Shown here piece by piece: positions 8,482 to 59,255 of a stretch of DNA of 64,000 bases. Under the pieces are notes generated by a model. It had not been told where the DNA came from. It did no database searches and saw only the letters and a list, made by a program, of their open reading frames with translations. Position numbers and translations under genes: made by a program. Source of the stretch: Parcubacteria group bacterium (GTDB lineage: Bacteria; Patescibacteriota; Minisyncoccia; 2-02-FULL-40-12); contig JACPLU010000003.1 in assembly GCA_016186395.1 (NCBI GenBank), forward strand, positions 148,022 through 212,021. The letters run 5' to 3'. Numbering within the stretch: position 1 is the first letter of the stretch; the number at the start of each line of letters is the position of its first letter.

Positions 8482-8849
8482 GTAGGAAAGTTAAAATTTA
8501 AAATGCAAAATTCAAAATTTAAAACTTGGAATTTACATAGTAAATTTTATCCGTACTTTTGCTTTTTACTTTTTGCCGCCTTTGGTCCAGCCTCGCCTCT
8601 CGCTTACGGCGGGGCTAGTCTTAGACGGCCGGCGGGAGTTTTAATTTATCAATCTAGCAGTTTATTATAAACCTCTCAAGTCCAGCACCACTTTTTTGAA
8701 AAAAGTGGTGCTGGGCAAGCCCCGCACCCCCGCCTGCCGGACGGGCAGGGAGTCCAGCACTGGTTTTCTGTACCCCCATACCTTTTGTTTTACAAAATGT
8801 GTGGGACTGTTCTGGATCTGGTGACGGGGACAAACAAACTAGTTTGGTA

Positions 8850-9003
8850 AAAATAATACTCTTGAACGGGTTTTGAGCCCGTAGCGGGCATGGTTTATCC
8901 CGCCCCAGTTTATTTAAATAAACTGGGGCGGGATAAGAGCGAAGGGCTCAACCTCTGAGCAAACCACGCTGGGGTTTGCGAAGGAAGAGAAAGAGTGTTA
9001 TTT
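8850..9003 (-). mobile_element. MITE-like element copy 2 (reverse orientation)
   Basis: It is the reverse complement of the conserved arms. Its central hairpin (cccgccccagtttatttaaataaactggggcggg) is nearly identical to that of copy 3. Confidence 0.75.
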
Positions 9004-9059
9004 ACCAAACCAACAGACTGATTCTAGCCAAAGACAAAGTTTTATGGTAGTATGAAAAA

Positions 9060-10720: not shown

Positions 10721-11063
10721 TTTTATAAATTTCTAAGTTTTTAATAATTTTTGACCTAAGTCTGTTTTTAGGCAACATGGCTAAAACTGTTTGTTTAACT
10801 AATTTTCTTGAGTCCTTTTTTACGACTTTCTCTAGACTTTCTGCCTTAATTCCACCTGGGTATCCAGTGTATCTGTAGTAGATTTTATTTTTTAGTTTTT
10901 TACCAGTAAATTTTAGTTTATCAGTGTTAACAACTATTACTTTTGTTTGAGGTAGTATATTGTATTCAAAAGAAGGTTTATTTTTGTCGCGTAAAAGTAT
11001 AGCAATTTGAGTTGCTAATCTTCCTAATACTTGATTTGTGGCATCTATTTTAACTTCGGTCAT
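10695..11063 (-). CDS. rplM: 50S ribosomal protein L13
   Basis: GRLATQIAILLRDKNKPSF...YYRYTGYPGGIK matches L13. The ATG at 11063 is preferred over the TTG start in the ORF track. Confidence 0.85.
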   Translation of the reverse strand: MTEVKIDATNQVLGRLATQIAILLRDKNKPSFEYNILPQTKVIVVNTDKLKFTGKKLKNKIYYRYTGYPGGIKAESLEKVVKKDSRKLVKQTVLAMLPKNRLRSKIIKNLEIYKNDSKKTNN

Positions 11064-11165
11064 GCGCGATACCAATATACTAACGCATACTAATTATACT
11101 CATAAGATTCGTCGCGTCAGACGCGATTCGTATCATTAGTATCAATTCGTATATTTGAATCGAAT
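11064..11165. repeat. Alpha-operon intergenic structured repeat, copy a
   Basis: It shares about 95 nt with copies b and c: GATACCAATATACTAA(C/T)(G/A)CATACTAATTATACTCATAAGATTCGTCGCGTCAGACGCGATTCGTATCATTAGTATCAATTCGTATATTTG. Confidence 0.8.
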
Positions 11166-11513: not shown

Positions 11514-11615
11514 ATGCGCGATACCAATATACTAATACATACTAATTATACTCATAAGATTCGTCGCGTCAGACGCGATTCGTATCATTAGTATCAATTC
11601 GTATATTTGAATCGG
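11514..11615. repeat. Alpha-operon intergenic structured repeat, copy b
   Basis: Nearly identical to copy a. It fills the entire rpoA-rplQ gap. Confidence 0.8.
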
Positions 11616-12386: not shown

Positions 12387-12389
12387 AAA

Positions 12390-12490
12390 ATAGTGATACC
12401 AATATACTAATGCATACTAATTATACTTATAAGATTCGTCGCGTCAGACGCGGTTCGTATCATTAGTATCAATTCGTATATTTGCATCGG
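12390..12490. repeat. Alpha-operon intergenic structured repeat, copy c
   Basis: It matches copies a and b with a few substitutions. It fills the rpsD-rpoA gap. Confidence 0.8.
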
Positions 12491-13126: not shown

Positions 13127-13332
13127 GCGAATTATGTCTACAAGCGTAGCGCGTAGCTACAGAATTCAGCACCCAGCTCCACTTTTACCATTTCAACATA
13201 AGCTTACTACTATAAAGACTACATAAGGCTATTTAGCCCGGCAATTTAAAGCTTTAAATTGCCGTTATTCAAATAGTAAAAGTGGGGCTGGGTAACTTTT
13301 TGTAGCTCCTCGACAAGCTCGGAGACAAAAAA

Positions 13333-25954: not shown

Positions 25955-27829
25955 TTACTCTTTTAGAATAGCTCTAACGCGCCTTATACCTGAACTAACG
26001 GCTTCTTCTCTGATGATTTTAAACTGGCCGATTTCTCCAGTATGAGTAACATGCGGTCCGCCGCAAAGTTCTCGACTGAAAGGAGGTCCTGAGCTAGTCG
26101 AAGGATCTGGTCCCACCGTATAAACTTTTACCACTGGTGGGTATTTTTGTTTGGAAAAGAATAATGCTCCAGATTTTTGGGCTTCTTCAAGTGGCATTTC
26201 TTTAAAAGTTACGGGTAGGTCTTTTTTTATAGCTTCGTTAATTAGATCCTCAACCTGTTTAATCTCTTCGTTTGTCATTTTTCTTGGAAATGTAAAATCA
26301 AAACGTAATCTTTCGGCTGTAATATCAGATCCTGCTTGTTTAACTTCGCCATCCAGTACTTTTCTTAATGCGGCCTGAAGCATATGAGTGGCAGTATGAA
26401 GTTTCGTGACTGTTTTTAATTCTTGTTCGTCAGCGGCCTTTAATTCTCCAGTATCAAGCAGTAACCCATGACCGCCGAATTTTTTTTCTATTCCGGCACG
26501 GGAGAGTTCCTGGTGTTTTTTAAATTCTTTATCAAAATCTTCTCGATTTAGATTTTTAGCTTTTTCTCCGCCTAACTCTTTTATTATTTCATAAGGCAAT
26601 CCAAAACTTTCATAAATTTTGAATGTTCCGGATGCATCAAAGACTGGAATTTTTGCTAATTCTTTGAGTCCACTTTTTAATGTTTTCTCGAATTTTTCTT
26701 TTTCATTGTCAAATTCGTGAATAATTAAATTTCTATCTAAATCATGATAAATTGGGCTGTAGATTTCGTGAATTTTTGCGAAAATATCATGCATAATTGT
26801 TAAATCCATTTTATGGATCTGACCGTAAGTTATAACCCTACGCATTAAACGGCGAAGTATGTAGCCTTGTTCTTTATTTGAAGGTCGTACTCCATCTGTA
26901 ATTAAAAAAGCAATGGCTCGACTGTGATCAGTAATAATTCTTTTTATTCTGGTGTCTTCTATTGGAATAAGGTTTAAAATTGGAGAAAATAGAGCCGTTT
27001 CAAAAATACTTTTTGTATTTTGTGCGATCATAACTAAGCGTTCTAGACCCATCCCCGTATCTATTCCGTTTTTTTCAAGTGGAGTAAGTTTTGTTTTATT
27101 GGAAAGAAGTTGTTCTCGTGAGCCGTTGCAAAAGAATTCGTTAAAAACTATATTCCAAATTTCAACATCCTGTCCTTGAGTATTTTTACAATAAATTTCG
27201 GTTGTTGGTCCACAAGGACCGGAGTTTCCGGTTGGTCCCCAAAATACATCTTCCATACCTTCCTCCCGAATGTCGGATACGCCTAATGATTGCCAGATTT
27301 TTTTTGATTCTTCATCTTTTGGAACAGTCGCTTGTCCTGAGCTTGTGGATTCGACAGGCTCACCACCCTGAGGCTTTGTCGAATGGGTCGAAGAAGATCC
27401 TTTAAAAACTGAAACATGAGAAATCGTTAGCCCCATTTCGTTGGTAATAAATTTATGAGCGTATTCAATCGCTTCTTTTTTAAAGTAGCTTGTCTTAAAT
27501 AGAGTTGAAGGGCCGCCCTTGGCCGAACCATTAGGTTTTAGGCCGAAACTAAAATTTCCAAGCATTTCAAAAAAAGTTAAATGTGATTCGTCCCCTATTT
27601 CGTCAATATCTGATGTGCGCATAGATTTTTGGATTGACACAGTATTTAAAGATCCAAAATCCTTCATTGGATCAGCTTCTCCAGTATAATAGGGTTTAAA
27701 TTGTTGCATTCCGGCAGTTGTAAAAAGAACCGACGGATCATCGGGTAAAAGCGAAGATGAAGGTACAATGGTGTGTCCTTTCTTTTCAAAGAAATCTAGA
27801 AACTTTTTACGGATTTCAGTATGAGTCAC
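25955..27829 (-). CDS. alaS: Alanine--tRNA ligase, compact form (624 aa). It has the catalytic and editing domains but no C-terminal C-Ala domain, and it carries a low-complexity in-frame insertion.
   Basis: FTTAGMQQFKPYY is the class II AlaRS motif. HTATHMLQAALRKVLG and CGGPHV are the editing-domain zinc motifs. The insert GSSSTHSTKPQGGEPVESTSSGQATV is encoded by a GC-rich palindromic element. Confidence 0.85.
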   Translation of the reverse strand: MTHTEIRKKFLDFFEKKGHTIVPSSSLLPDDPSVLFTTAGMQQFKPYYTGEADPMKDFGSLNTVSIQKSMRTSDIDEIGDESHLTFFEMLGNFSFGLKPNGSAKGGPSTLFKTSYFKKEAIEYAHKFITNEMGLTISHVSVFKGSSSTHSTKPQGGEPVESTSSGQATVPKDEESKKIWQSLGVSDIREEGMEDVFWGPTGNSGPCGPTTEIYCKNTQGQDVEIWNIVFNEFFCNGSREQLLSNKTKLTPLEKNGIDTGMGLERLVMIAQNTKSIFETALFSPILNLIPIEDTRIKRIITDHSRAIAFLITDGVRPSNKEQGYILRRLMRRVITYGQIHKMDLTIMHDIFAKIHEIYSPIYHDLDRNLIIHEFDNEKEKFEKTLKSGLKELAKIPVFDASGTFKIYESFGLPYEIIKELGGEKAKNLNREDFDKEFKKHQELSRAGIEKKFGGHGLLLDTGELKAADEQELKTVTKLHTATHMLQAALRKVLDGEVKQAGSDITAERLRFDFTFPRKMTNEEIKQVEDLINEAIKKDLPVTFKEMPLEEAQKSGALFFSKQKYPPVVKVYTVGPDPSTSSGPPFSRELCGGPHVTHTGEIGQFKIIREEAVSSGIRRVRAILKE

Positions 27830-28011
27830 AAATTAAGTGTATAAAAAAAGCCTCTTAGCGGCAAATAGTTAATCCTTAAATGAACTTTTTGAGTTTAGGC
27901 TTGAGGTATTCGTTTTTGGTTTAATAGAAATCTAAATATGGCAGGATTTTGACTTTTATGCTATAAATTTAGGAATAATCGTTTCGTATTTTAACAAAAA
28001 GGAGAGGATAA

Positions 28012-28509
28012 ATGTCCCAAACTCAATGCCGAAGGTTGAATTCACCTGTTATTTTTCAAAAAGAGCTAACCTTTAAGCCCAAAGAACAATTTGAAATTAT
28101 TGATATAACGGAAGAAATGCAGAAATTGGTTAGATCGATGCATATTACTATCGGTTTTATGCATCTGATTTCGATGCATACCACGACAGCGATTTTACTA
28201 AACGAGAATGAAAAGTTTTTATTGAATGACTTTCGTCATATTTTTCGATGTTTTCCTTTAGGCATTGTTCCGGATGGTTACCTATTTGGCCACAATGATC
28301 TTAAGATGCGTCGTATTACATCGCCAACCTTAGATGAAAGTGAGTGTCCCAATGCTGAAGCACATTGCTGCTCAATTTTCTTAAAAAATGATCAAATGCT
28401 TCATATTAAGTATGGAGAACTTATATTAGGTCGTTGGCAGAGAATTTTGTTGGTTGAGTTGGATAAGCCTAAGGAACGGCAGATTTCTGTTTTAATAATG
28501 GGAGGGTAA
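28012..28509 (+). CDS. YjbQ/UPF0047 family protein (secondary thiamine-phosphate synthase-like)
   Basis: TTAILLNENEKFLLNDFRHIFRCF...GRWQRILLVELDKPKERQISVLIMGG matches the conserved YjbQ fold. Confidence 0.7.
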   Translation: MSQTQCRRLNSPVIFQKELTFKPKEQFEIIDITEEMQKLVRSMHITIGFMHLISMHTTTAILLNENEKFLLNDFRHIFRCFPLGIVPDGYLFGHNDLKMRRITSPTLDESECPNAEAHCCSIFLKNDQMLHIKYGELILGRWQRILLVELDKPKERQISVLIMGG

Positions 28510-28525
28510 TTACCCTCTTTTTGTT
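28502..28525 (+). terminator. Rho-independent terminator overlapping the stop codon of the preceding gene
   Basis: The hairpin gagggtaattaccctc is followed by tttttgttgttt. Confidence 0.55.
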
Positions 28526-28628
28526 GTTTGAGGCATTCGTATTGGCTTGTCCTTCGATAGACTCAGGACCCTGAGCTTGTCGAATGGGTAGATTCGAATT
28601 GTATTGCTGTTTAGGTGGCCAAAGTTCT

Positions 28629-29915
28629 CTAAGTAATTATTCCCCCTCCTAAAACAATATCTTTTTGATAAATTACTGCAGATTGGCCAGGGGTTATGGC
28701 CTTTTGTGGCTTTAGGAACTTTATCGTTCCATTTTTTTTAACTATGGCTTCTTGATCTGGTTGGCGGTAACGAGTTTTAACTGTCACTTTGAACGGAAAG
28801 TCAGGATGGTTATTAGTCCAAGTCATGTTTTTTAATATGGCTGAAGTTTTAAATAATTGGCTTTCTTTGGTTAAGGTATCAACAAAGAGAGTATTTTTTT
28901 TAATATCTTTTCCAGAAACGAAATAAGTTTTTCCATTACCTTGAATATTTAAACCATGACGCTGGCCAATGGTGTAATAATAAATCCCATCGTGCTTACC
29001 GACGGTTTGACCGTTTTTGGCATAAACAATATTTCCCGGTTTTGGTTTTATATAATTTTTTAGAAATTCATTCATTTTTAAATCTCCGACAAAACAAACA
29101 CCTTGGCTCTCTTTTTTATCCCAATTTGGCAAACCGAATTTTTTAGCAAGTTTACGCACCTCTGGTTTGGTATAATCACCTATTGGAAATAAACAATGTT
29201 TTAACTCTTTTTGAGTCAGAGTATATAAAAAGTAAGATTGGTCTTTATTTTGATCCTTACCTTTGTGAAGCTCGAAAGTATAAGACGACAAGCTTTGTGA
29301 GGTAATTTGAGACGGCGCGGGCATGGTTCCGGGTAGAATACCTGGAGAGCGCCGGCTCAACTTAGAGAAATTCCTCGCTGGGGAATTTCTCGTGCCGAAC
29401 AAGACTTGTCGTCTTTTTATCCCGGCGTAATGACCGGTGGCAATATAATCCGCTCCTTCTTTTAATGCCTTTTTTAAAAAAGCCCCAAACTTTATGTGTT
29501 TATTACACATTACATCGGGGTTTGGGGTGAGACCTTGTCGGTATCCGTTAATCATGTAGTTAGTAACCTTTTTTTCATACTCATTTGACAAATCCCAAGT
29601 TAAAATAGGAATTCCTATTTTTGCAGCAACACGCACGGCATCCTCTCGATCTTGTTCCCACATGCAGTTAGTTGTTGGTTGATAGTTGTTCGTTGATAGT
29701 TGGCTTTGCCATGGTTTCATAAAAACTCCGACTACATTGTAGCCCCTAAACCCCTTTGGGGTCGGGCGACCAAATAATCTTTTAAAATTATTTGGTTTAG
29801 CCTGTTTTAGTAAAAAAGCGGCAACAGAGGAATCTACTCCACCAGACATTGCGACATAAACCGTTTTTTGTTCTGACCTTGACATAGTTTTATTTAAGTA
29901 ATAAGATAATATCAT
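28629..29915 (-). CDS. mnmA: tRNA-specific 2-thiouridylase MnmA, with a ~45-aa in-frame insertion
   Basis: The PP-loop SGGVDSSV and CNKHIKFGAFL...ATGHYA are MnmA signatures. The insertion 29282..29415 is bounded by an 11-bp inverted repeat (AAGACGACAAG / CTTGTCGTCTT). Confidence 0.85.
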   Translation of the reverse strand: MILSYYLNKTMSRSEQKTVYVAMSGGVDSSVAAFLLKQAKPNNFKRLFGRPTPKGFRGYNVVGVFMKPWQSQLSTNNYQPTTNCMWEQDREDAVRVAAKIGIPILTWDLSNEYEKKVTNYMINGYRQGLTPNPDVMCNKHIKFGAFLKKALKEGADYIATGHYAGIKRRQVLFGTRNSPARNFSKLSRRSPGILPGTMPAPSQITSQSLSSYTFELHKGKDQNKDQSYFLYTLTQKELKHCLFPIGDYTKPEVRKLAKKFGLPNWDKKESQGVCFVGDLKMNEFLKNYIKPKPGNIVYAKNGQTVGKHDGIYYYTIGQRHGLNIQGNGKTYFVSGKDIKKNTLFVDTLTKESQLFKTSAILKNMTWTNNHPDFPFKVTVKTRYRQPDQEAIVKKNGTIKFLKPQKAITPGQSAVIYQKDIVLGGGIIT

Positions 29916-29944
29916 AATTTAGCAATTTACCAAAGGAGAATCAA

Positions 29945-30238
29945 ATGAAAAAACTCGCTCTGGTTTTGATTTGTTGTACACTTTGGCTTTCTTCTTCTAT
30001 TTTTGGTTTAGGAATGGTGAATTATTACCTTATTGAGAAATATCATTATCACGATAATTTAACTTACGAAAAGATAAATCTATTTGTATATAGGAATTTA
30101 CTGGGTGTTGTAGCGATTATACCGGGGCCGATTATTTTAATTGTGTCTATTATAGAAGTAAGTCGTCGAGAAAATTTGCCTCATTCAAAGTGGGGTCTTG
30201 CCTATACAAAAAATATGACATGGCCTAAATATCATTAA
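29945..30238 (+). CDS. Hypothetical small membrane protein
   Basis: ORF with two hydrophobic helices and an SD-like AAAGGAGAA upstream. Confidence 0.35.
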   Translation: MKKLALVLICCTLWLSSSIFGLGMVNYYLIEKYHYHDNLTYEKINLFVYRNLLGVVAIIPGPIILIVSIIEVSRRENLPHSKWGLAYTKNMTWPKYH

Positions 30239-30321
30239 TAGACTTCCCGCCACGCTTTGCGCGGTTTTTTTGTCCTTCCTAAGCCTTGGCGGAGGAGAAT
30301 GATTTATGTATACTTTTAACT

Positions 30322-30831
30322 ATGTTAAAACTCAAAGTTGGTCAGAAAGCGCCAGATTTTAATTTACCAGATCAAAACGGGAAACTGCATAAGTTAAGTG
30401 ACTATAAAGGAAAAGGGGTTTTGCTTTATTTTTATCCTAAAGATGATACTCCAGGTTGTACAAAAGAAGCATGTGGGATACGGAATAGCTATAGTCGGTT
30501 TAAGAAACAAAAGTTGGTGGTGTTGGGAGTAAGTGTGGATTCGGTTAAAAAGCACGCTAAATTTGCTAAAAAATATAAACTGCCATTTACGCTGTTAGCA
30601 GATGAAGAGAAAAAAGTCGTTAATCTTTACGGAGTCTGGGCAAAAAAGAAGTATACCCTTCGCCCTCGCTCAGGGCGGGTGGGCCGGGAATACATGGGAA
30701 CTCTAAGAACCTCTTTTCTCATTGATTCTAAAGGAAGAATCGTAAAGATTTATGAAACCGTCAAACCCGAATTTCATGCCAAAGAAGTTCTAATTGACCT
30801 TAAGAGTCAGAAATATTCAAAAGTCTTTTAG
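30322..30831 (+). CDS. bcp: Peroxiredoxin Bcp (thiol peroxidase), with a ~11-aa in-frame GC-rich insertion
   Basis: [17 protein letters not shown]...[16 protein letters not shown] is the Bcp active site. The extra segment [11 protein letters not shown] is encoded by cccttcgccctcgctcagggcgggtgggccggg. Confidence 0.8.
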
Positions 30832-32236: not shown

Positions 32237-32647
32237 ATGGGATTTTTTATCAAACTATTATTATTTTTAGGCGTTATTGCCGGCATCTATTCATTTTTTG
32301 GCGGCAATACTTTTTCTAATCTAAAAGGGAAAATTATAGAAGTGGTTAGTCCCCCGTCACCTAGAGAAAAACTCGTTAGCAATTTGAGTAATAACTTTAA
32401 TAATTTAGAAGCTCTTATAAACAAATTGGGGTCTGACAGTATTTCTGTCCAAGAAAAGTTCAGTCTTAGCGGTGAGGCTCAAAAACTCGTTCATCAAACA
32501 GAGGATCTGGTTTCTGACCTAAACAATCTTGCTAAAAGTTCTGATAACGGAATATTTAAGACTGTTCTAAATAAAGTTTTGCCACAAACACAAAGTCCTA
32601 CACCCACTAGCGGTTTACAAGTTCAGTGTATTGAGCCTGGTGAATAA
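32237..32647 (+). CDS. Hypothetical secreted protein (136 aa). Its last codons and stop lie within the left TIR of MITE copy 4.
   Basis: N-terminal hydrophobic helix. The ORF ends ...PGE-TAA inside GGTGAATAA. Confidence 0.35.
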   Translation: MGFFIKLLLFLGVIAGIYSFFGGNTFSNLKGKIIEVVSPPSPREKLVSNLSNNFNNLEALINKLGSDSISVQEKFSLSGEAQKLVHQTEDLVSDLNNLAKSSDNGIFKTVLNKVLPQTQSPTPTSGLQVQCIEPGE

Positions 32648-32784
32648 TACTCTTTCTCTTTCTTCGCAAACCCCAGCGTGATTTGCTCAGGGGTTGAGCC
32701 CTTCGCTCTTCCCAAGCTCTTTCTAAAGAGCTTGGAAAACCATGCCCGCTACGGGCTCAAAACCCGTTCAAGAGTATTATTCAC
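32639..32784 (+). mobile_element. MITE-like element copy 4
   Basis: Perfect 16-bp TIRs (GGTGAATAATACTCTT / AAGAGTATTATTCACC). The central hairpin is ccaagctctttctaaagagcttgg. Confidence 0.8.
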
Positions 32785-32986
32785 CAAGTTAAAAGATTTA
32801 ATCGTTTAGTTTGAAAATAATTTAAATACATGTTACGGTGTGGGGATGAATCCCGTAGTGAAAATTCGAATAGATTTACATATGCTAAGTCACTATGGGG
32901 TTTAAGAGATACAATATAAAAGGAGTTTGGATAGTGTTATATAGATTCTAAAAATCATAAAGCATTATTCGAATTTCTACTACGGG

Positions 32987-34149: not shown

Positions 34150-34170
34150 TCTATTCGACAAGCTCAGTTT

Positions 34171-41299: not shown

Positions 41300-42289
41300 T
41301 TATTCAATGATATTAGGTGGTATATGACCTTCTAATGCTTCTATAATATTTTGTGCGGCAAGTTCAGCCATTTTATTGCGCGTTTCTTCTGTAGCAGAAG
41401 CAATATGAGGAGTAAGAATTATATTATCCAGCTTTAATAAATCAGGATTAACGTTTGGTTCGTTTTCAAAAACGTCTATGGCAGCTCCTTTGATCAAGCC
41501 CTTCGACAGGCTCAGGGCAAGCGCTGTTTCATCTACAATGGGTCCCCGTGAGGTATTAATTAAATAAGCGGTTGGTTTCATTTTTTTAAATCTATCTTCG
41601 TTAAATAAATGATGGGTTGAATCTAATAAAGGAACATGAATGGATACAAAATCGCAATATGGAAGCATATTATCAAGATTTTGATAATATACAGCGTTAT
41701 ATTCTTTTTCGAATTCTTCATTTCGTTTTGTATCATTATAAAGTACTTTCATTTGAAATCCTTTTACTGTATGATAAGCGACTCGCGTACCAATTCTGCC
41801 AAGCCCCACGATACCAAGAGTTTTCTTTGATACATCGGTTCCTAAAAGTAATTCCGGTCCCCAGGCTTTATACAATCCAGCTCTGGTAAATTTATCTGCT
41901 TCAGGGATGCGATGAGCAATTGAAAGCATTAAGGAAAATGTATGTTCAGCTACCGTATCTGTTAAGACCCCAGGAGTATTGGTAACCATGATTTTTCTTT
42001 CTTTAGCCGCCACAAGATCAATATTATCAAAGCCAACTGCATAATTGGCAATTATTTTTAAAGTTGGTAACCCGGCATCCATAATTTCAGCATCAATTTT
42101 TTCAGTAAGTATGGAAAGCAATGCATCGAAGGCTTTGCTTTCGCTCTGAGCTTGTCGAAGAGCAGTCACAATCTCTTCTTTTGTAGCTTCTCTATCTTTT
42201 GCTCCCTCATTTACAGTCACTTCATAGCCCTTATCTTTTAAGAGCTTGATACCGATTTGTGGTATTGGTCGTGTAATAAATATTTTCAT
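41300..42289 (-). CDS. D-isomer-specific 2-hydroxyacid dehydrogenase (glyoxylate/hydroxypyruvate reductase-like)
   Basis: GIVGLGRIGTRVA is the NAD-binding fold, along with a catalytic His/Glu/Arg arrangement. Two short GC-rich palindromic inserts lie in the CDS. Confidence 0.8.
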   Translation of the reverse strand: MKIFITRPIPQIGIKLLKDKGYEVTVNEGAKDREATKEEIVTALRQAQSESKAFDALLSILTEKIDAEIMDAGLPTLKIIANYAVGFDNIDLVAAKERKIMVTNTPGVLTDTVAEHTFSLMLSIAHRIPEADKFTRAGLYKAWGPELLLGTDVSKKTLGIVGLGRIGTRVAYHTVKGFQMKVLYNDTKRNEEFEKEYNAVYYQNLDNMLPYCDFVSIHVPLLDSTHHLFNEDRFKKMKPTAYLINTSRGPIVDETALALSLSKGLIKGAAIDVFENEPNVNPDLLKLDNIILTPHIASATEETRNKMAELAAQNIIEALEGHIPPNIIE

Positions 42290-45972: not shown

Positions 45973-46323
45973 ATGATCAAACAAAACTTTCATCAAAATC
46001 TCAGGGATAAAATAAATACTTATATTCATTTAGTGTACAAAGTAACTAAAGAATTTCCTCGTGAGGAAACATACGGAGTGACGTCCCAACTAAGGAGGTC
46101 TGCACTTTCGGTTATGTTAAACTATATCGAGGGATACGCAAGATTTAAAACCAAAGTTCATAAGAACTTTTTAGAGATTGCTTACGGCTCACTTCAGGAG
46201 TCTAAATATATTCTTGAATTTTCGCTCGAAGAAGAATTTATGAAAAAAGATAAATATATAAAATTAGCCCACTTAGCAGATGAAATCGGAGTTATGTTGT
46301 GGGGAATTATTACTAAATTATGA
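45973..46323 (+). CDS. Four-helix-bundle protein
   Basis: YKVTKEFPREETYGVTSQLRRSALSVMLNYIEGYAR is characteristic of the family named after 23S rRNA intervening-sequence proteins. Confidence 0.7.
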   Translation: MIKQNFHQNLRDKINTYIHLVYKVTKEFPREETYGVTSQLRRSALSVMLNYIEGYARFKTKVHKNFLEIAYGSLQESKYILEFSLEEEFMKKDKYIKLAHLADEIGVMLWGIITKL

Positions 46324-53512: not shown

Positions 53513-54190
53513 CTAGAGTATATCGTGGATATCCATTCCGGCCCACGCGCAAAATTCACAAGCCTGGTGTTTTGGAGGCAATGGTCCTTGTAAAAGCATA
53601 GACGCTTCATAAAATAGCTTTTTAGCGTCTTCTTTTGAGGTTTCAATTCTTTTAGGAACAATATCAAATTTAATAGTACTGTTATCTAAAATATCGGTTG
53701 GAGCAAAAAATACTAAATATCCAATATCTTTAGTTGGATAACCGTTTTCATCCAAAAGCCAAGTATATAAATTAAGCTGGTTTTGATGAAATATATGTGA
53801 GTCTTCTTTAATACTGGCTTTGGATTTGTAGTCTAATGGTATGAAAAAGTTATCATCTGTTATCAAGCAGTCATCCAGGGCGCTTACTAGTTGAACGTTT
53901 AATTCTTTATCAACATAGCTTGGTCCTGTTTTCCAAAAACGCCATTTTTTTAGCAATTCAAAGTTGTCGAAAAGTTGACCCTCAACAAGGCCTTCAAGTT
54001 GGGGTGGAAGTTTTCCCTCTGCTCGGAAACGATCAAAATATTCTTTTACCAGCAAATCCATCTTTGTATAAAGAGGCATTGGTATTCCTTGGGGCCTTTT
54101 AATATGTTCTTTTACTTGTAAATAAAAACAGCGTGGGCAGTCTTTGTATAGGGATAATGATGTAGCAGAAAGTGTAAGCAGACTTTTCAT
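53513..54190 (-). CDS. PD-(D/E)xK family nuclease (Cas4/RecB-like) with N- and C-terminal cysteine pairs
   Basis: DCPRCF near the N-terminus, the core IPLDYKSK (D...D/ExK), and the C-terminus CEFCAW. Confidence 0.5.
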   Translation of the reverse strand: MKSLLTLSATSLSLYKDCPRCFYLQVKEHIKRPQGIPMPLYTKMDLLVKEYFDRFRAEGKLPPQLEGLVEGQLFDNFELLKKWRFWKTGPSYVDKELNVQLVSALDDCLITDDNFFIPLDYKSKASIKEDSHIFHQNQLNLYTWLLDENGYPTKDIGYLVFFAPTDILDNSTIKFDIVPKRIETSKEDAKKLFYEASMLLQGPLPPKHQACEFCAWAGMDIHDIL

Positions 54191-54957: not shown

Positions 54958-54964
54958 TTAACAA

Positions 54965-55114
54965 GGTGAATAATACTCTTTCTCTTTCTTCGCAAACCCC
55001 AACGTGGTTTGCTCAGGGATTGAGCCCTTCGCTCTTCCACCATCTGATTTAAAACCAGATGGTGAAAACCATGCCCACTACGGGCTCAAAACCCGTTCAA
55101 AAGTATTATTCACC
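54965..55114 (+). mobile_element. MITE-like element copy 5, inserted between znuC-like and znuB-like genes of the same operon
   Basis: Perfect TIRs GGTGAATAATACTCTT / AAAAGTATTATTCACC. The central hairpin is caccatctgatttaaaaccagatggtg. Confidence 0.8.
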
Positions 55115-55119
55115 AAACT

Positions 55120-55896: not shown

Positions 55897-58530
55897 CTAT
55901 TTCGGTAACTCTTCAACAGAAATTGTAAATTCTTCACCACGCTGGATTTGTTTATCTAAAATTTTTCTAGCTATTATTACTTCAACTGTATTTTGGATGA
56001 CTCTTTGCATTGGCCGGGCGCCGAATTGCGGATCAAAACCAATTTCCGAAATATAATCTATCAGTTTTTCGTTAGGAGCAAATAAATAACTTTGTTCTTT
56101 AAGTCGTTCGCTAAGTTTTTTAAGAAGAATTTTTGCGACTTCTTTAATCTGTTCTCTGGTTAATGGATGAAAAACTATTATCTCGTCAAAACGATTCAAT
56201 AGTTCAGGAGTAAATAAATGATTTTTTAATATATAATCCAGAATAAGTTCTTTTTCTTGAGCAGTATCCGTATTTTGCGTAACTAGTTGACGAATAAATT
56301 CAGAACCGGCATTTGATGTGGCAATGATAATATTTTGTTTTAGAGAAACGGTTTTACCAAAGGCGTCAGTCATTCTGGCTTCGTCAAAAACCGGTAAGAA
56401 AAGATTTAAAATATTCGGATGGGCCTTTTCAAATTCATCTAATAGCACAACTGAAAAAGGTGACTCTCTTAATTTATTTACAAACTGACCAGGTTCTTGA
56501 GTTCGCAGAGAACCTATAAATCTGTCCATTGACTCTGACTCTTGAAATTCAGACATATCAAAACGAATCATTTTGTCTTCACTGCCGAAATAAACCTTAG
56601 CTAAAATTTTGGCAGTAAGGGTTTTCCCTACCCCTGTTGGCCCCACAAATAAAAATACCCCGGCTGGTTTATCGCGCTTCATCAGGCCCACCCGTAGTCT
56701 TAACATTGTTTCAGCCACTCGTTTTACAGCCAGTTCTTGATTAACAATATCTTCATGCATTAATTTTTCCAGGTTATCTATTTTTTCTTTTTCTGAACCG
56801 GAAACCTCCCCTAAAGGAACATGTGTTTTTTGGGTTATGGTTTTATTTACATCCTCGGCTAGAACAAAACTTTTACCTTGTTTAGCGACACTAGATGCAA
56901 CTTCCGTTAAAAGATCAATGGCTTTTTCGGGAAACGGAACATTGGGAATAAAGAAGTCTGCCTTGTCCACAATATTTTTAAGAGCTTGGTGGGTAACAAA
57001 AACACCTTGCTGACGCTCAATGGCCGGTAAAACTGTTTGTAAAATTTGTGTGGTTTGAACTTTATTTGGCTCTTGTATATCTATCTTTTCAAATAAACGC
57101 ATTAGATCTACCCGAGGCTCAATATATTTGTGAAAATTTTGAGAGTCTGTCAGAGCAATTACCTGAAAACGACTTGAGCCTAAATACGGTTTTAGAACTT
57201 CTGAAATATCAATTTTACCAACACCTTGAGCCGCGCCAACAAAATTATGAATGTCATCAATAATTAAAATTATATTGCCGGCATGTTCAGCGTCCTTTAA
57301 TACTCTGATGAGAGTTGCCTCCATTTCCTGTGTAGTCGGGCTTGAGGAAGTCAATAAAGCCATATTTAATTCCAAAACTCTTTTGTACTTCAAGGCCGGC
57401 AGGGCTTTGCCCTTGGCGACTAGGTCTGTAAAACCATAAACTATGGTATGTTTTCCAATACCCGGTTCGCCAACAAGCAATACGTTATTATCTCCGCTTC
57501 GAGATAAAGTTATTTCAATTTGATTAATTATCTCCTGGCGGCTGATGAGTCTTACTTCTTTTTTTCCTGTTTCAAAATATTTTGAAACGTCAGTTGCAAA
57601 TCTATCAAGTAAAGGAGTATAACCATATACCCAATCAACTCCAATTGGGGAAGAACGAAGTAGGTTTTCTAGTTCCCAAAATCTTCTGTGTTTTTTTAGG
57701 TATCCAAGGTTTGCCTCAAACCAAAGTCCCAGATCTACTAAGTCATCTCTGTCAATGTTCATTTCAAGGAACATTTTTCTTAAGACCTCGTTAGTATCAA
57801 AAAGGGCAATTAGCAAATCGGTTACTAAAATTCTTTCACTTTTATGTTCTTCTCTTAGTTTTTGGCATATTTCAATACACTTTTGAGCCTGTTCATCTAG
57901 CTGCCAATTTACATCTGAAGACTTTAATAACGTACTTGTTTGACTAAATCCAAATGCTTCTAAAACTTGTTTTTCAAGAGTTGGAGGATAAATTTCAAGT
58001 CTTTGCCATAATGCTCTTGCCGCAGAATGTCCTACAAGCGCGGCAAAAAGAGCATTTGTTGAAATTGATAAGTTTTTTTCCGCGCTCATTAGAGCCGCTT
58101 TATAAAACACCTGGGCTGTATCAAAATCTAAATATTCCAGAGGTTCAGAATCGCCCTTAAGCTTAGGTTCTTTTAAATACAAAGCAATAAAAATTTCAAA
58201 GAATGCTAATGAAAAACCTAAAGGAATAAATATATATGCCAAACCTAAAAATAAATCTTCAAAATTTAATAATTTAGTTAAATCAATTTTATTTAATATC
58301 GGTAAGTAATAAGCGCTGTTAGGGTTAATAATTACTTCTAGCCCGTGGCTAATTCCCCAAATAGCAAGATTACCAAACCCGATAATAAGAAACAAAACTC
58401 TCCATATTTTTAAAAGTTTCGTAGGGAATTGATTTAAGAATTTTACCGATGAAATAATTTTAGGAGTCATTATAATAAAGAAAAACCCTGGGCTATTGAA
58501 AAAACTAATACAAGCGGCCAAAGAACCCAA
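55897..58530 (-). CDS. Membrane-anchored Clp-like double AAA+ ATPase with a degenerate NBD1
   Basis: Three to four N-terminal transmembrane helices. NBD1 has GEPGIGKHT and IIDDIH. NBD2 is canonical (GPTGVGKTLT, LLDEFEKAHP). Confidence 0.7.
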   Translation of the reverse strand: MGSLAACISFFNSPGFFFIIMTPKIISSVKFLNQFPTKLLKIWRVLFLIIGFGNLAIWGISHGLEVIINPNSAYYLPILNKIDLTKLLNFEDLFLGLAYIFIPLGFSLAFFEIFIALYLKEPKLKGDSEPLEYLDFDTAQVFYKAALMSAEKNLSISTNALFAALVGHSAARALWQRLEIYPPTLEKQVLEAFGFSQTSTLLKSSDVNWQLDEQAQKCIEICQKLREEHKSERILVTDLLIALFDTNEVLRKMFLEMNIDRDDLVDLGLWFEANLGYLKKHRRFWELENLLRSSPIGVDWVYGYTPLLDRFATDVSKYFETGKKEVRLISRQEIINQIEITLSRSGDNNVLLVGEPGIGKHTIVYGFTDLVAKGKALPALKYKRVLELNMALLTSSSPTTQEMEATLIRVLKDAEHAGNIILIIDDIHNFVGAAQGVGKIDISEVLKPYLGSSRFQVIALTDSQNFHKYIEPRVDLMRLFEKIDIQEPNKVQTTQILQTVLPAIERQQGVFVTHQALKNIVDKADFFIPNVPFPEKAIDLLTEVASSVAKQGKSFVLAEDVNKTITQKTHVPLGEVSGSEKEKIDNLEKLMHEDIVNQELAVKRVAETMLRLRVGLMKRDKPAGVFLFVGPTGVGKTLTAKILAKVYFGSEDKMIRFDMSEFQESESMDRFIGSLRTQEPGQFVNKLRESPFSVVLLDEFEKAHPNILNLFLPVFDEARMTDAFGKTVSLKQNIIIATSNAGSEFIRQLVTQNTDTAQEKELILDYILKNHLFTPELLNRFDEIIVFHPLTREQIKEVAKILLKKLSERLKEQSYLFAPNEKLIDYISEIGFDPQFGARPMQRVIQNTVEVIIARKILDKQIQRGEEFTISVEELPK

Positions 58531-58865: not shown

Positions 58866-59255
58866 AAAACATAAAAAAACCTTAAGTTTCGGATTCGTGT
58901 CATTCTTAAACTAGGTTTACTATATTTATTATATCAAAATTTGGAGGTTTATAGAAGTCCACGGGCTTACCTTGCTTCGCCGAGGCTACGCAAGACGAGC
59001 GCCCGTGGTACTCCAAGGAGTACAGGATTGATTTTGAAAAGATATTGATGCTTTTCAAAATCAATCCTGACTTATATAATTTCCCTACGCTCGCTTGCGC
59101 TCGCTTCGGGGCTGTCATTCATCCCCGAGCTGACGCTCGGGGTTTTCTGACAGGAATTATAAAGTAGTCTATGTCCACACGCAAAACAATGTTTATTTGA
59201 CATAAAACTATTCTTATGTTATATAAATTACATTGCAATTTACCAACTTTAAGGA

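Follow-up and report, generated by a model that had tools for sequence, protein, structure and literature searches.

A short GC-rich stem-loop repeat in housekeeping genes of a Parcubacteria-group bacterium and its relation to a two-arm element present in many bacterial phyla

How does a short GC-rich repeat come to lie, in frame, within several conserved housekeeping genes of a bacterium? The question is raised by a window of 64 kb (the whole stretch of DNA that was analysed, to which all counts for the source genome refer) from a metagenome-assembled genome of a Parcubacteria-group bacterium, a member of the Candidate Phyla Radiation (CPR). The GC content of the window is about 35%, and its open reading frames (ORFs) are ordinary housekeeping genes for ribosomal proteins, RpoA, MreB, glycosyltransferases, pentose-phosphate enzymes and ClpB-like ATPases. 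The alanyl-tRNA synthetase (AlaRS), the D-glycerate dehydrogenase and MnmA are identical to database entries of a 'Parcubacteria group bacterium' metagenome-assembled genome, from a contig of 239,152 bp. The answer favoured here, which we hold with about even confidence, is that the repeats belong to a family resembling the repetitive extragenic palindromic (REP) elements and widespread in bacteria, and that its fragments would persist in the CPR mostly as translated, near-neutral protein segments that are exchanged by recombination. Sequence comparison demonstrates the enrichment of the motif, its insertion relative to homologues, its distribution across phyla and the covariation of its stem.

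An initial annotation of the window had proposed that the 14-mer TTCGACAAGCTCAG recurs, with one or two mismatches, at no fewer than eight sites. With up to two mismatches the 14-mer indeed had eight matches, compared with 0.38 expected, and none of 100 shuffled sequences reached that number. When the large repeats were masked, GAGCTTGTCGA came first among the 11-mers in an unbiased k-mer scan (four exact copies versus 0.008 expected). The sites at 13309-13322, 27337-27363, 28571-28584, 34154-34167, 41502-41515 and 42146-42159 were as described, but the list needed revision: the mnmA gene lacks the 14-mer, bcp contains only a gapped variant, and a copy in alaS at 26090-26102 (one mismatch, encoding PSTSSG) had been missed. 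Units were located at positions 13309, 26090, 27338/27350/27371 (one insert), 28553/28572, 34154, 41502 and 42147, and altogether the short GC-rich stem-loop repeat is represented in the window by about ten copies or fragments. A plain scan for GC islands was uninformative, returning 140 islands that were mostly native Gly/Ala-rich motifs. Windows of GC content at third codon positions depend on the reading frame; a codon-aware scan for GC excess was better, but it misses inserts that encode Pro, Gly or Ala.

The unit consists of a conserved 13-nt loop, TTCGACA(A/G)GCTCA, which is closed by a variable, co-varying stem of 3-4 bp. In 282 units the flank positions 1, 2 and 3 pair in 95, 97 and 94%, with CG, GC and TA swaps, versus 68, 61 and 20% in a shifted control; the conservation resides in the loop of a small hairpin and not in its stem. 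The annotation had regarded the repeat as a feature of this lineage, which proved too narrow, as the extended motif occurs in many phyla and the dehydrogenase and RpiB copies in many CPR lineages. The exact 21-mer TTCGACAAGCTCAGGRCRARC was found in at least 120 stretches, compared with about two by chance (own estimate), from at least ten phyla or classes; copy numbers and taxonomic ranges from this motif scan of genomes are lower bounds. The carriers listed comprise Sphingomonadales, Burkholderiales, Nitrosomonadales, Methylococcales, Moraxellaceae and Campylobacterota, further Dehalococcoidia, Acidobacteriota, Planctomycetota, Elusimicrobia, Dadabacteria and Calditrichia, and in the CPR Saccharibacteria and Paceibacterota. 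A related 21-mer was present on 12 viral contigs (IMG/VR), and a BLAST search of cultured phages gave no match to the element.

Outside the CPR the unit is one arm of an intergenic two-arm element of about 80 nt, in which the units stand in inverted order. Its layout is CCGTTCG-xyz-TGAGCYTGTCGAA-z'y'x', a spacer (median 27 nt), and abc-TTCGACAAGCTCA-c'b'a'-CGAACGG, so that an outer 7-bp stem encloses two 3-bp hairpins, the 13-nt loops of which are invariant and complementary to each other. Within the arms of 86 two-arm elements, the triplets pair in 99, 96 and 94%, and across the arms in 79, 9 and 14%; the outer heptamers pair across the arms in 85-95%, and 79 of the 86 are heterodimers. Because the triplets sit inside the conserved CCGTTCG...CGAACGG frame, the covariation of the stem is truly compensatory and not derived from the target. 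An origin of the covariation by insertion into palindromic targets (between GCC and GGC) was therefore rejected for the two-arm elements; for the single units of the CPR it is possible.

On Sphingobium replicons (plasmid BLAST) the element is multi-copy, with up to 20 copies per replicon of about 1 Mb, and it is never annotated. In five low-GC proteobacterial loci hardly any copy is found within a long ORF. Rfam gave no match at the gathering threshold in 16 loci with the full element or in the window, and a tRNA-like element was rejected, since ARAGORN made no call in 12 loci with the full element, nor did it find any tRNA gene in the window. Some Betaproteobacteria and other genomes contain short tandem arrays of the unit or runs of GCTCAGGGCAAGC-like heptamers that are not two-arm elements (L048 3789-3957, with a period of about 37 nt, L084, L107 and L024).

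No full two-arm element was found in 289 kb of CPR DNA, only single units or abutted forward-reverse pairs, and the tail of the CPR units is either CGAAGGG-like or CAAGC. In 225 kb of CPR DNA other than the window, for which some of the loci had been chosen via the motif or via homology to the window, 11 units were present compared with 0.27 expected, and 10 of these lay inside ORFs of at least 150 aa. The copies in the window are as follows:

13305..13325, plus strand: degenerate intergenic unit CTCC-TCGACAAGCTC-GGAG between rpsK (S11) and rpsD (S4); fold z -1.2.
26087..26105, minus strand: AlaRS site C, single forward unit TCC-TTCGACTAGCTCA-GGA, encoding PSTSSG.
27329..27391, minus strand: AlaRS site B, in-frame insertion of 63 nt, residues 147-167, STHSTKPQGGEPVESTSSGQA.
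28544..28588, minus strand: intergenic pair between the convergent UPF0047 and mnmA genes.
30655..30678, plus strand: Bcp insertion, clean, 24 nt, 8 aa TLRPRSGR, residues 124-131.
34154..34167, plus strand: exact 14-mer in the 21-nt spacer from the release-factor gene to the next ORF.
41498..41524, plus strand: dehydrogenase site 2, GCCC-TTCGACAGGCTCA-GGGC-AAGCGC; the coding (minus) strand reads ALALSLSKG.
42143..42163, minus strand: dehydrogenase site 1, forward unit GCTC-TTCGACAAGCTCA-GAGC, read ALRQAQS; tail CGAAAGC.

The intergenic pair is composed of CCCA-TTCGACAAGCTCA-GGG directly abutting TCC-TGAGTCTATCGAA-GGA-CAAGCC, i.e., of a forward and a reverse unit (DNA fold dG -7.3, z -1.8). It is related to the alaS site B copy 1.2 kb away, and an extended nested arrangement is common to both. 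The copy at 34154..34167 looks like a truncated unit; its closing stem is absent.

The proteins of the window were compared with 119 CPR AlaRS, 150 representative Bcp, 120 CPR MnmA and 120 CPR dehydrogenase homologues, and no relatives closer than 65-80% protein identity were found. The AlaRS contains three segments, residues 97-113, 147-167 and 576-579, that are missing from the 119 CPR homologues (60-65% identity). Site B, which adds 21 aa (occupancy 0.03), is also missing from the Aquifex AlaRS; it is built from three units, forward (with a 15-nt loop), reverse and forward, and it ends in GGACAAGCG (fold z -0.09). Site C adds 4 aa immediately before the conserved ELCGGPHV motif. The loop of site C reads GPELVEGQHPSSSNSSGPPF or GPELAEGRNSSTSSEPPF in other CPR AlaRS, and PELVEG..PSSSNSSG, PSTGSG or PSTMLRTS are carried at the corresponding loops. 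Residues 97-113 (site A) are a GC-rich insertion of 17 aa, LKPNGSAKGGPSTLFKT (27491-27541, minus strand), which is unrelated to the motif; its blastn search against all DNA compared gave self-matches only, and at this loop other CPR AlaRS carry GYKPGEPVSPKG-type inserts.

The Bcp insertion has the layout A-CCC-TTCGCCCTCGCTCA-GGG-CGG, which is one stem-loop unit plus four bases. Its occupancy is 0-3% in the 150 homologues, and the extra residues are also evident in an alignment with the PDB. The CCC/GGG stem is perfect and the codon-aware GC excess has a z of 4.0; the 14-nt loop variant TTCGCCCTCGCTCA was not seen elsewhere, including the viral scan, and the copy is probably a divergent unit with a 14-nt loop.

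In the dehydrogenase two different situations are found. The unit at site 1 belongs to an allele, ALRQAQSESKAF, that is longer by 7 aa, and the filled allele ALRQAQGEGKPF is present in 40 of the 120 CPR homologues (68-80% identity). At site 2 the segment A(K/A/E)ALK(E/N)G is replaced at equal length; ALSLSKG occupies this site in 25 of 120 homologues, and the codon-aware GC excess has a z of 4.2. The extra peptides proposed by the annotation were verified by alignment for AlaRS residues 147-167, MnmA, Bcp and dehydrogenase site 1, but not for 41495-41526, which is the equal-length replacement. In the DNA of eight relatives the filled site 1 reads GCC CTT CGA CAA GCT CAG GGT GAA GGG AAG CCC TTC, with P0126 and P0164 identical over 36 nt, and the empty site reads GGC GTA AAA GGA GTT, so that filled and empty alleles differ by the replacement of a segment and not by a clean insertion. 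In distant homologues the native sequence of site 1, GCT TTG AGG CAA AAG GAA TAC GAT, is similar to the filled allele at both of its ends. The element bases kept at site 2 are a different subset in each lineage and the consensus restores a perfect unit, so that this copy is old and decaying.

The filled and empty alleles are scattered over the phylogeny. All four combinations of site 1 and site 2 states are present among the 120 dehydrogenases, and on a tree of the masked proteins parsimony required 29 (site 1) and 21 (site 2) changes, compared with 34 and 23 for shuffled labels, which is nearly random. As this neighbour-joining tree is weakly resolved, a tree-free pair test was added. The states agreed in 85-89% of the pairs that are at least 90% identical, and agreement was already random at 85-90% identity. 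Along the gene, the identity of P0164 and P0200 alternates between blocks of 98-100% and blocks of about 78%, with a dip at site 1; the overall identity of P0126 and P0164 is 75%, compared with 93-96% at site 1. These mosaic profiles show that homologous recombination between lineages moves the element-bearing segment. The dehydrogenase genes are mosaics in which the history of this segment differs from that of the rest of the gene. A metagenome scan for dehydrogenase relatives yielded only three loci with more than 70% identity.

The annotation had assumed that protein loops are remodelled, and for the dehydrogenase this was not supported. In an AlphaFold2 model (mean predicted local distance difference test, pLDDT, 85) the 10-residue blocks that contain the units average a pLDDT of 88-94; ALRQAQS lies at the end of helix 37-49, and ALALSLSKG (residues 255-263) essentially coincides with helix 254-262. 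Both units are thus predicted to build helices, not loops.

The rpiB gene is adjacent to the dehydrogenase gene, and one of its sites, empty in the window and in most relatives, is occupied by a reverse unit in L133 (GCC CTG AGC TTG TCG AAG GGC, ALSLSKG) and by a forward unit in L135 and L134 (ALRQAQD and TLRLAQG). Here the 21-nt cassette is in frame in both orientations, and one and the same protein site can, depending on the lineage, be empty or be filled in the forward or the reverse direction. In two relatives, L137 (267-763) and L138 (9482-9993), a HicAB toxin-antitoxin pair is found directly upstream of the dehydrogenase gene; in L138 it stands between rpiB and the dehydrogenase gene, L137 is too short to include rpiB, and the window has no HicAB there. 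The UDP-glucose dehydrogenase of L138 contains an intein with a LAGLIDADG domain.

Of the six reading frames of the unit, five are open. The frames used in the window are PSTSSG (twice, plus a STKPQG variant), GEPVE, LRQAQ and LSLSK, and in bcp LRPRSG; the FDKLR frame was absent from 360 CPR proteins. A 21-nt cassette closed by a GCC/GGC stem encodes A-LRQAQ-G when read in one orientation and, in the same frame, A-LSLSK-G in the other. An extended cassette, with CCCA in front and CAAGC behind, reappears in unrelated genes of different CPR, as THSTSSGQAT in a 1059-aa ORF (L124) and as AALRQAQGKPGG in a 626-aa ORF (L071).

The largest of the inserts proposed by the annotation turned out to be of another kind:

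29282..29415, minus strand: MnmA insert, palindromic element of 134 nt with 12-bp terminal inverted repeats AAGACGACAAG.../...CTTGTCGTCTT.

It adds about 37-43 aa and forms a gap in the PDB alignment at residues 170-212. The annotation had counted it as a family member, but its best match to the 14-mer has four mismatches (hand count), which is the chance level, and none with two or fewer was found. With a dG of -33.1 kcal/mol and a z of -6.6 it is the sole strong hairpin among the coding inserts, and no target-site duplication was seen at its ends. As blastn found no second copy in the window or in the other DNA compared (self-matches only), it is a different element, a separate singleton palindrome outside the family with the 13-nt loop.

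Of the insertion hot-spots of CPR MnmA, the site of this insert, after residue 162, is the one most often used, with unrelated peptides in 60 of 120 homologues. A second hot-spot lies after residue 62 (41 of 120). The inserts are diverse, GC-rich (SAEAASAAKAG, FDYAQG) as well as Asn/Lys/Ser-rich (NSKFKIQNSK), and the length of CPR MnmA ranges from 331 to 432 aa, one 303-aa fragment aside. The N-terminal 18-aa segment AKPNNFKRLFGRPTPKGF of the MnmA of the window (29757-29810) is a conserved feature of the subfamily and not a mobile insert.

How could the REP-like family have come to its present state in the CPR? CPR genomes have very little intergenic DNA, and the element was found there only as fragments, mostly inside genes. 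The units would survive inside genes because the peptides encoded by the five open frames (PSTSSG, LRQAQ, LSLSK, PELVEG) are small, polar or compatible with a helix, and the copies are presumably translated and selectively near-neutral. Spread among CPR lineages would occur via homologous recombination after the uptake of DNA. New copies could be generated by a trans-acting enzyme that recognises the stem-loop, as does the REP-associated tyrosine transposase (RAYT) for REPs, or by templated patch conversion at sites with flanks that were similar to the element beforehand. Insertions that are clean and of unit size (Bcp, AlaRS) are found side by side with replacement alleles at sites with a prior resemblance to the element, and this combination fits either a trans-acting, structure-specific enzyme or templated patch conversion.

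Several observations weigh against the REP-like reading. According to the annotation each coding copy forms a hairpin, which is true of the mnmA insert and, weakly, of bcp (z -2.1); for the copies in alaS and the dehydrogenase, folding was not stronger than in shuffled sequences (z -0.1 to +1.9). Single units are not stable hairpins, and for this reason a structure-specific recognition of the CPR copies is doubtful. Transposases, integrases and RAYTs were absent from the 63 ORFs of the window, and clustering of the genes neighbouring 132 motif-carrying loci revealed no recurrent protein family, only housekeeping synteny. No target-site duplication was found at the filled and empty sites that were compared, at three sites the alleles differ by segment replacement and not by clean insertion, and DNA comparison with relatives of 65-80% protein identity revealed no recent insertion. 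In relatives dehydrogenase site 2 decays at synonymous positions, so that at least this copy is old rather than recently mobile. The notion of tiny mobile palindromes that spread by simple insertion, and of one family occupying all eight sites, is not supported: replacements, the missing duplications and the missing transposase speak against the former, and the separate mnmA insert and the unrelated GC-rich inserts in alaS and mnmA against the latter.

A more far-reaching version, which is put forward only tentatively, is that the two-arm element of about 80 nt would represent an undescribed, structure-constrained element common to phyla and recognised by a conserved protein. In the CPR, the 21-nt unit would then serve as a coding cassette that is symmetric with respect to orientation (A-LRQAQ-G / A-LSLSK-G), one that core enzymes repeatedly gain, turn round and lose in their helices and loops, and that recombination then passes between lineages. 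Such a unit would amount to a natural form of protein editing by cassettes.

Other explanations make different use of the same observations. The CPR copies might be dead fragments of foreign DNA, scavenged GC-rich pieces that were patched into genes by illegitimate or microhomology-mediated recombination and have no mobility within the CPR genome. On this view the source is the DNA that CPR cells take from their surroundings, where GC-rich bacteria living alongside them carry the two-arm element in great abundance. We consider this unlikely. It would agree with the lack of the outer CCGTTCG/CGAACGG stem in the CPR copies and of a full element in the 289 kb, with a tail of dehydrogenase site 1, CGAAGGG, that is one or two mismatches away from the proteobacterial CGAACGG arm, with the unrelated singleton inserts in the same genes (alaS 27491-27541, mnmA 29282-29415) and with the replacement type of the filled alleles. 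However, random scavenging would hardly bring eight to ten copies of a single motif into 64 kb, the nested arrangement common to alaS site B and the intergenic copy suggests duplication within the genome, and unrelated genes of different CPR carry the cassette with the CCCA prefix and the CAAGC tail. A rather improbable alternative is that the unit is a functional cis-element, an RNA or single-stranded DNA hairpin bound by a conserved protein, with selection at the nucleotide level even in genes and with copies that are regulatory and not selfish. The strong compensatory covariation of the stem, the conservation of the 13-nt loop across phyla and the compensatory change of the site 1 stem from GCTC/GAGC to GCCC/GGGT would be expected of such an element, as would the identity of the site 1 codons CTT CGA CAA GCT CAG in the window, P0126 and P0164, given that the third-position identity to the window is just 42-47% for P0128 and P0126 (the two filled relatives measured). 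However, many of the segment codons are two-fold degenerate, so that the excess conservation is modest, and recombination explains the local identity peak equally well. In addition, site 2 and L142 drift at synonymous positions, single units have no stable fold, the element is missing at the same sites in closely related genomes, and no Rfam family matches.

That the motif is a DNA uptake signal, comparable to the uptake signal sequence (USS) of Haemophilus or the DNA uptake sequence (DUS) of Neisseria, and accumulated in tolerated frames through preferential uptake, allele replacement and molecular drive, seems highly improbable to us. Filled alleles do replace rather than interrupt the resident sequence, including one copy without a change in length, the alleles are scattered over the phylogeny in genes that are recombination mosaics, and the copies occur in both orientations at poorly conserved protein positions. 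The density, however, is only 0.125 per kb (window) or 0.05 per kb (relatives), the sequence is abundant in unrelated phyla as a structured two-arm element, and covariation of a stem is not expected for a motif that is recognised in double-stranded DNA. Finally, the inserts could be an artefact of assembly or binning, i.e., foreign GC-rich reads built into a CPR contig, a thought suggested by the metagenomic origin of the window and by the frequency of the motif in co-occurring bacteria. It is hardly credible, because none of the coding copies disrupts the frame of the intact, conserved gene in which it lies, and equivalent copies with lineage-specific synonymous differences occupy the same protein sites in independent NCBI, ENA, JGI and Logan assemblies.

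The window contains further repeats. A larger intergenic repeat of about 150-200 nt is present in five copies (80-283, 8852-9008 on the minus strand, 23476-23638, 32636-32787 and 54963-55116). Its termini are 13-nt inverted repeats, AATAATACTCTT / AAGAGTATTATT; the 5' and 3' modules are conserved, and the hairpin in the centre, self-complementary in every copy, differs fully in sequence between the copies, except that copies 2 and 3 share one; copy 1 contains an extra palindromic insert of 47 nt. This larger repeat had no Rfam match even at E <= 1, and it could be a MITE (a miniature transposable element with inverted repeats) or a structured RNA with a hypervariable stem. One ORF matches the 23S rRNA intervening-sequence protein family, with a bAvd-like family below the cut-off, and a PD-(D/E)XK nuclease-family ORF lies about 760 nt from one copy of the larger repeat (ORFs 45973-46323, plus strand, and 53513-54190, minus strand). 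A repeat of 101 nt, 92-98% identical (11062-11162, 11514-11614 and 12389-12489), fills three consecutive spacers of the ribosomal-protein/rpoA operon, between L13 and L17, L17 and RpoA, and RpoA and S4.

GC-rich palindromic patches with a codon-aware GC excess were found at 23907-23936 (plus strand, CCTCCGAAGCCTTGGCGAAGGAGG, ESSEALAKEE) in a 413-aa ORF without a Pfam match, and at 57385-57426 (minus strand, GTCGCCAAGGGCAAAGCCCTGCCGGCCTTG, DLVAKGKALPALKY) in a ClpB-like ORF. A similar word, AAGCCTTGGCGGAGGAG, stands at 30270-30297, just upstream of bcp; blastn of GC-rich patches other than the alaS and mnmA inserts against all DNA compared gave self-matches only. Four intergenic stretches are GC-rich (65-82%; 8572-8641, 8701-8766, 58957-59023 and 59080-59149); several of them look self-complementary by eye, and none had an Rfam match at the gathering threshold.

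The REP-like reading of the in-frame units would extend the phenomenon of selfish DNA inside genes from Rickettsia to the CPR. In CPR AlaRS, MnmA, Bcp, RpiB and the dehydrogenase, insertion hot-spots are filled by several repeat families, which matters for alignment, modelling and phylogeny. Scattered filled and empty alleles in mosaic genes are direct evidence of frequent homologous recombination between diverged CPR lineages. The element itself is unannotated, with exact 21-mers from Alphaproteobacteria to Chloroflexota and the CPR and with clear covariation. Its novelty was judged against Rfam and the open-access literature, in neither of which it was found; searches with the DNA words and the derived peptides returned nothing relevant, and a concept search gave general papers on REPs and repeats only. 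As carriers such as Sphingobium can be cultivated, the binding partner and the mode of spread are directly testable.

Which known system does the family resemble most? The annotation had likened the copies to the Rickettsia palindromic elements (RPEs), which are in-frame repeats in the housekeeping genes of a small AT-rich genome (Ogata et al., 2000, as listed in PMC3184786). The likeness holds insofar as an in-frame GC-rich repeat adds peptide segments that the orthologues lack and leaves the gene intact (AlaRS, Bcp, MnmA, dehydrogenase), but family size, hairpin and range are different. RPEs are palindromes of about 105-146 bp confined to Rickettsia, whereas the units described here have 20-65 nt, a stem of 3-4 bp and a core that occurs in many phyla. 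The core copies do not form the long stable hairpin of an RPE; only the unrelated mnmA singleton has an RPE-like size and folding. RPE-4 and RPE-6 are REPs with a CGTC tag (PMC3733652), a tag that is absent from the present family.

REP superfamilies are defined by a GTAG or CGTC tag, by stems of 6-9 bp and by loops that in most families have 2-5 nt, and they are occasionally found inside genes (PMC3733652). With REPs, and with their composite forms known as bacterial interspersed mosaic elements (BIMEs) and REPINs, the family shares short GC-rich stem-loops that are mostly intergenic, multi-copy and arranged as inverted heterodimers with variable spacers. Inverted dimers are represented outside the CPR by the 86 reverse-forward elements, whereas the window contains only abutted forward-reverse pairs. 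GTAG and CGTC/TGTC tags are absent, and the flanks are CCGTTCG/CGAACGG or CAAGC; the stem has 3 (sometimes 4) bp, and the conserved loop has 13 nt. Furthermore, identical 21-mers are common to many phyla, whereas most families of REPs are limited to a single species or a few.

Other classes of short elements are more distant. A MITE is marked by terminal inverted repeats, target-site duplications and a related insertion sequence; the core units have no duplication, and no insertion sequence was found. Uptake sequences share with the family the short over-represented motif in both orientations, the tolerated frames at variable protein positions and the homologous replacement of alleles. They differ in being lineage-specific and about ten-fold denser, with roughly one copy per kb, and the co-varying stem of the present unit implies a folded single strand, unlike USS and DUS. 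The attC sites of integrons have R''/R' core sites RYYYAAC / GTTRRRY and form arrays between cassettes near an IntI gene; CCGTTCG/CGAACGG does not fit this consensus, the great majority of the 8-kb loci contain a single exact match, and no integrase was found in the window. The GC clusters of yeast mitochondria and the 'byp' elements are GC-rich palindromic mini-elements in an AT-rich genome and also occur in coding genes, but they are organellar and eukaryotic, and byps are skipped by the ribosome, whereas the kept frame and the lack of stop codons in the present units suggest ordinary translation. With the PARCELs the units have in common coding DNA with dyad symmetry, a patchy occurrence among distant microbes and predicted helical peptides. 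PARCELs, however, are tandem repeats of 25 residues in accessory surface proteins, whereas the units described here are single cassettes of 5-7 residues in conserved enzymes.

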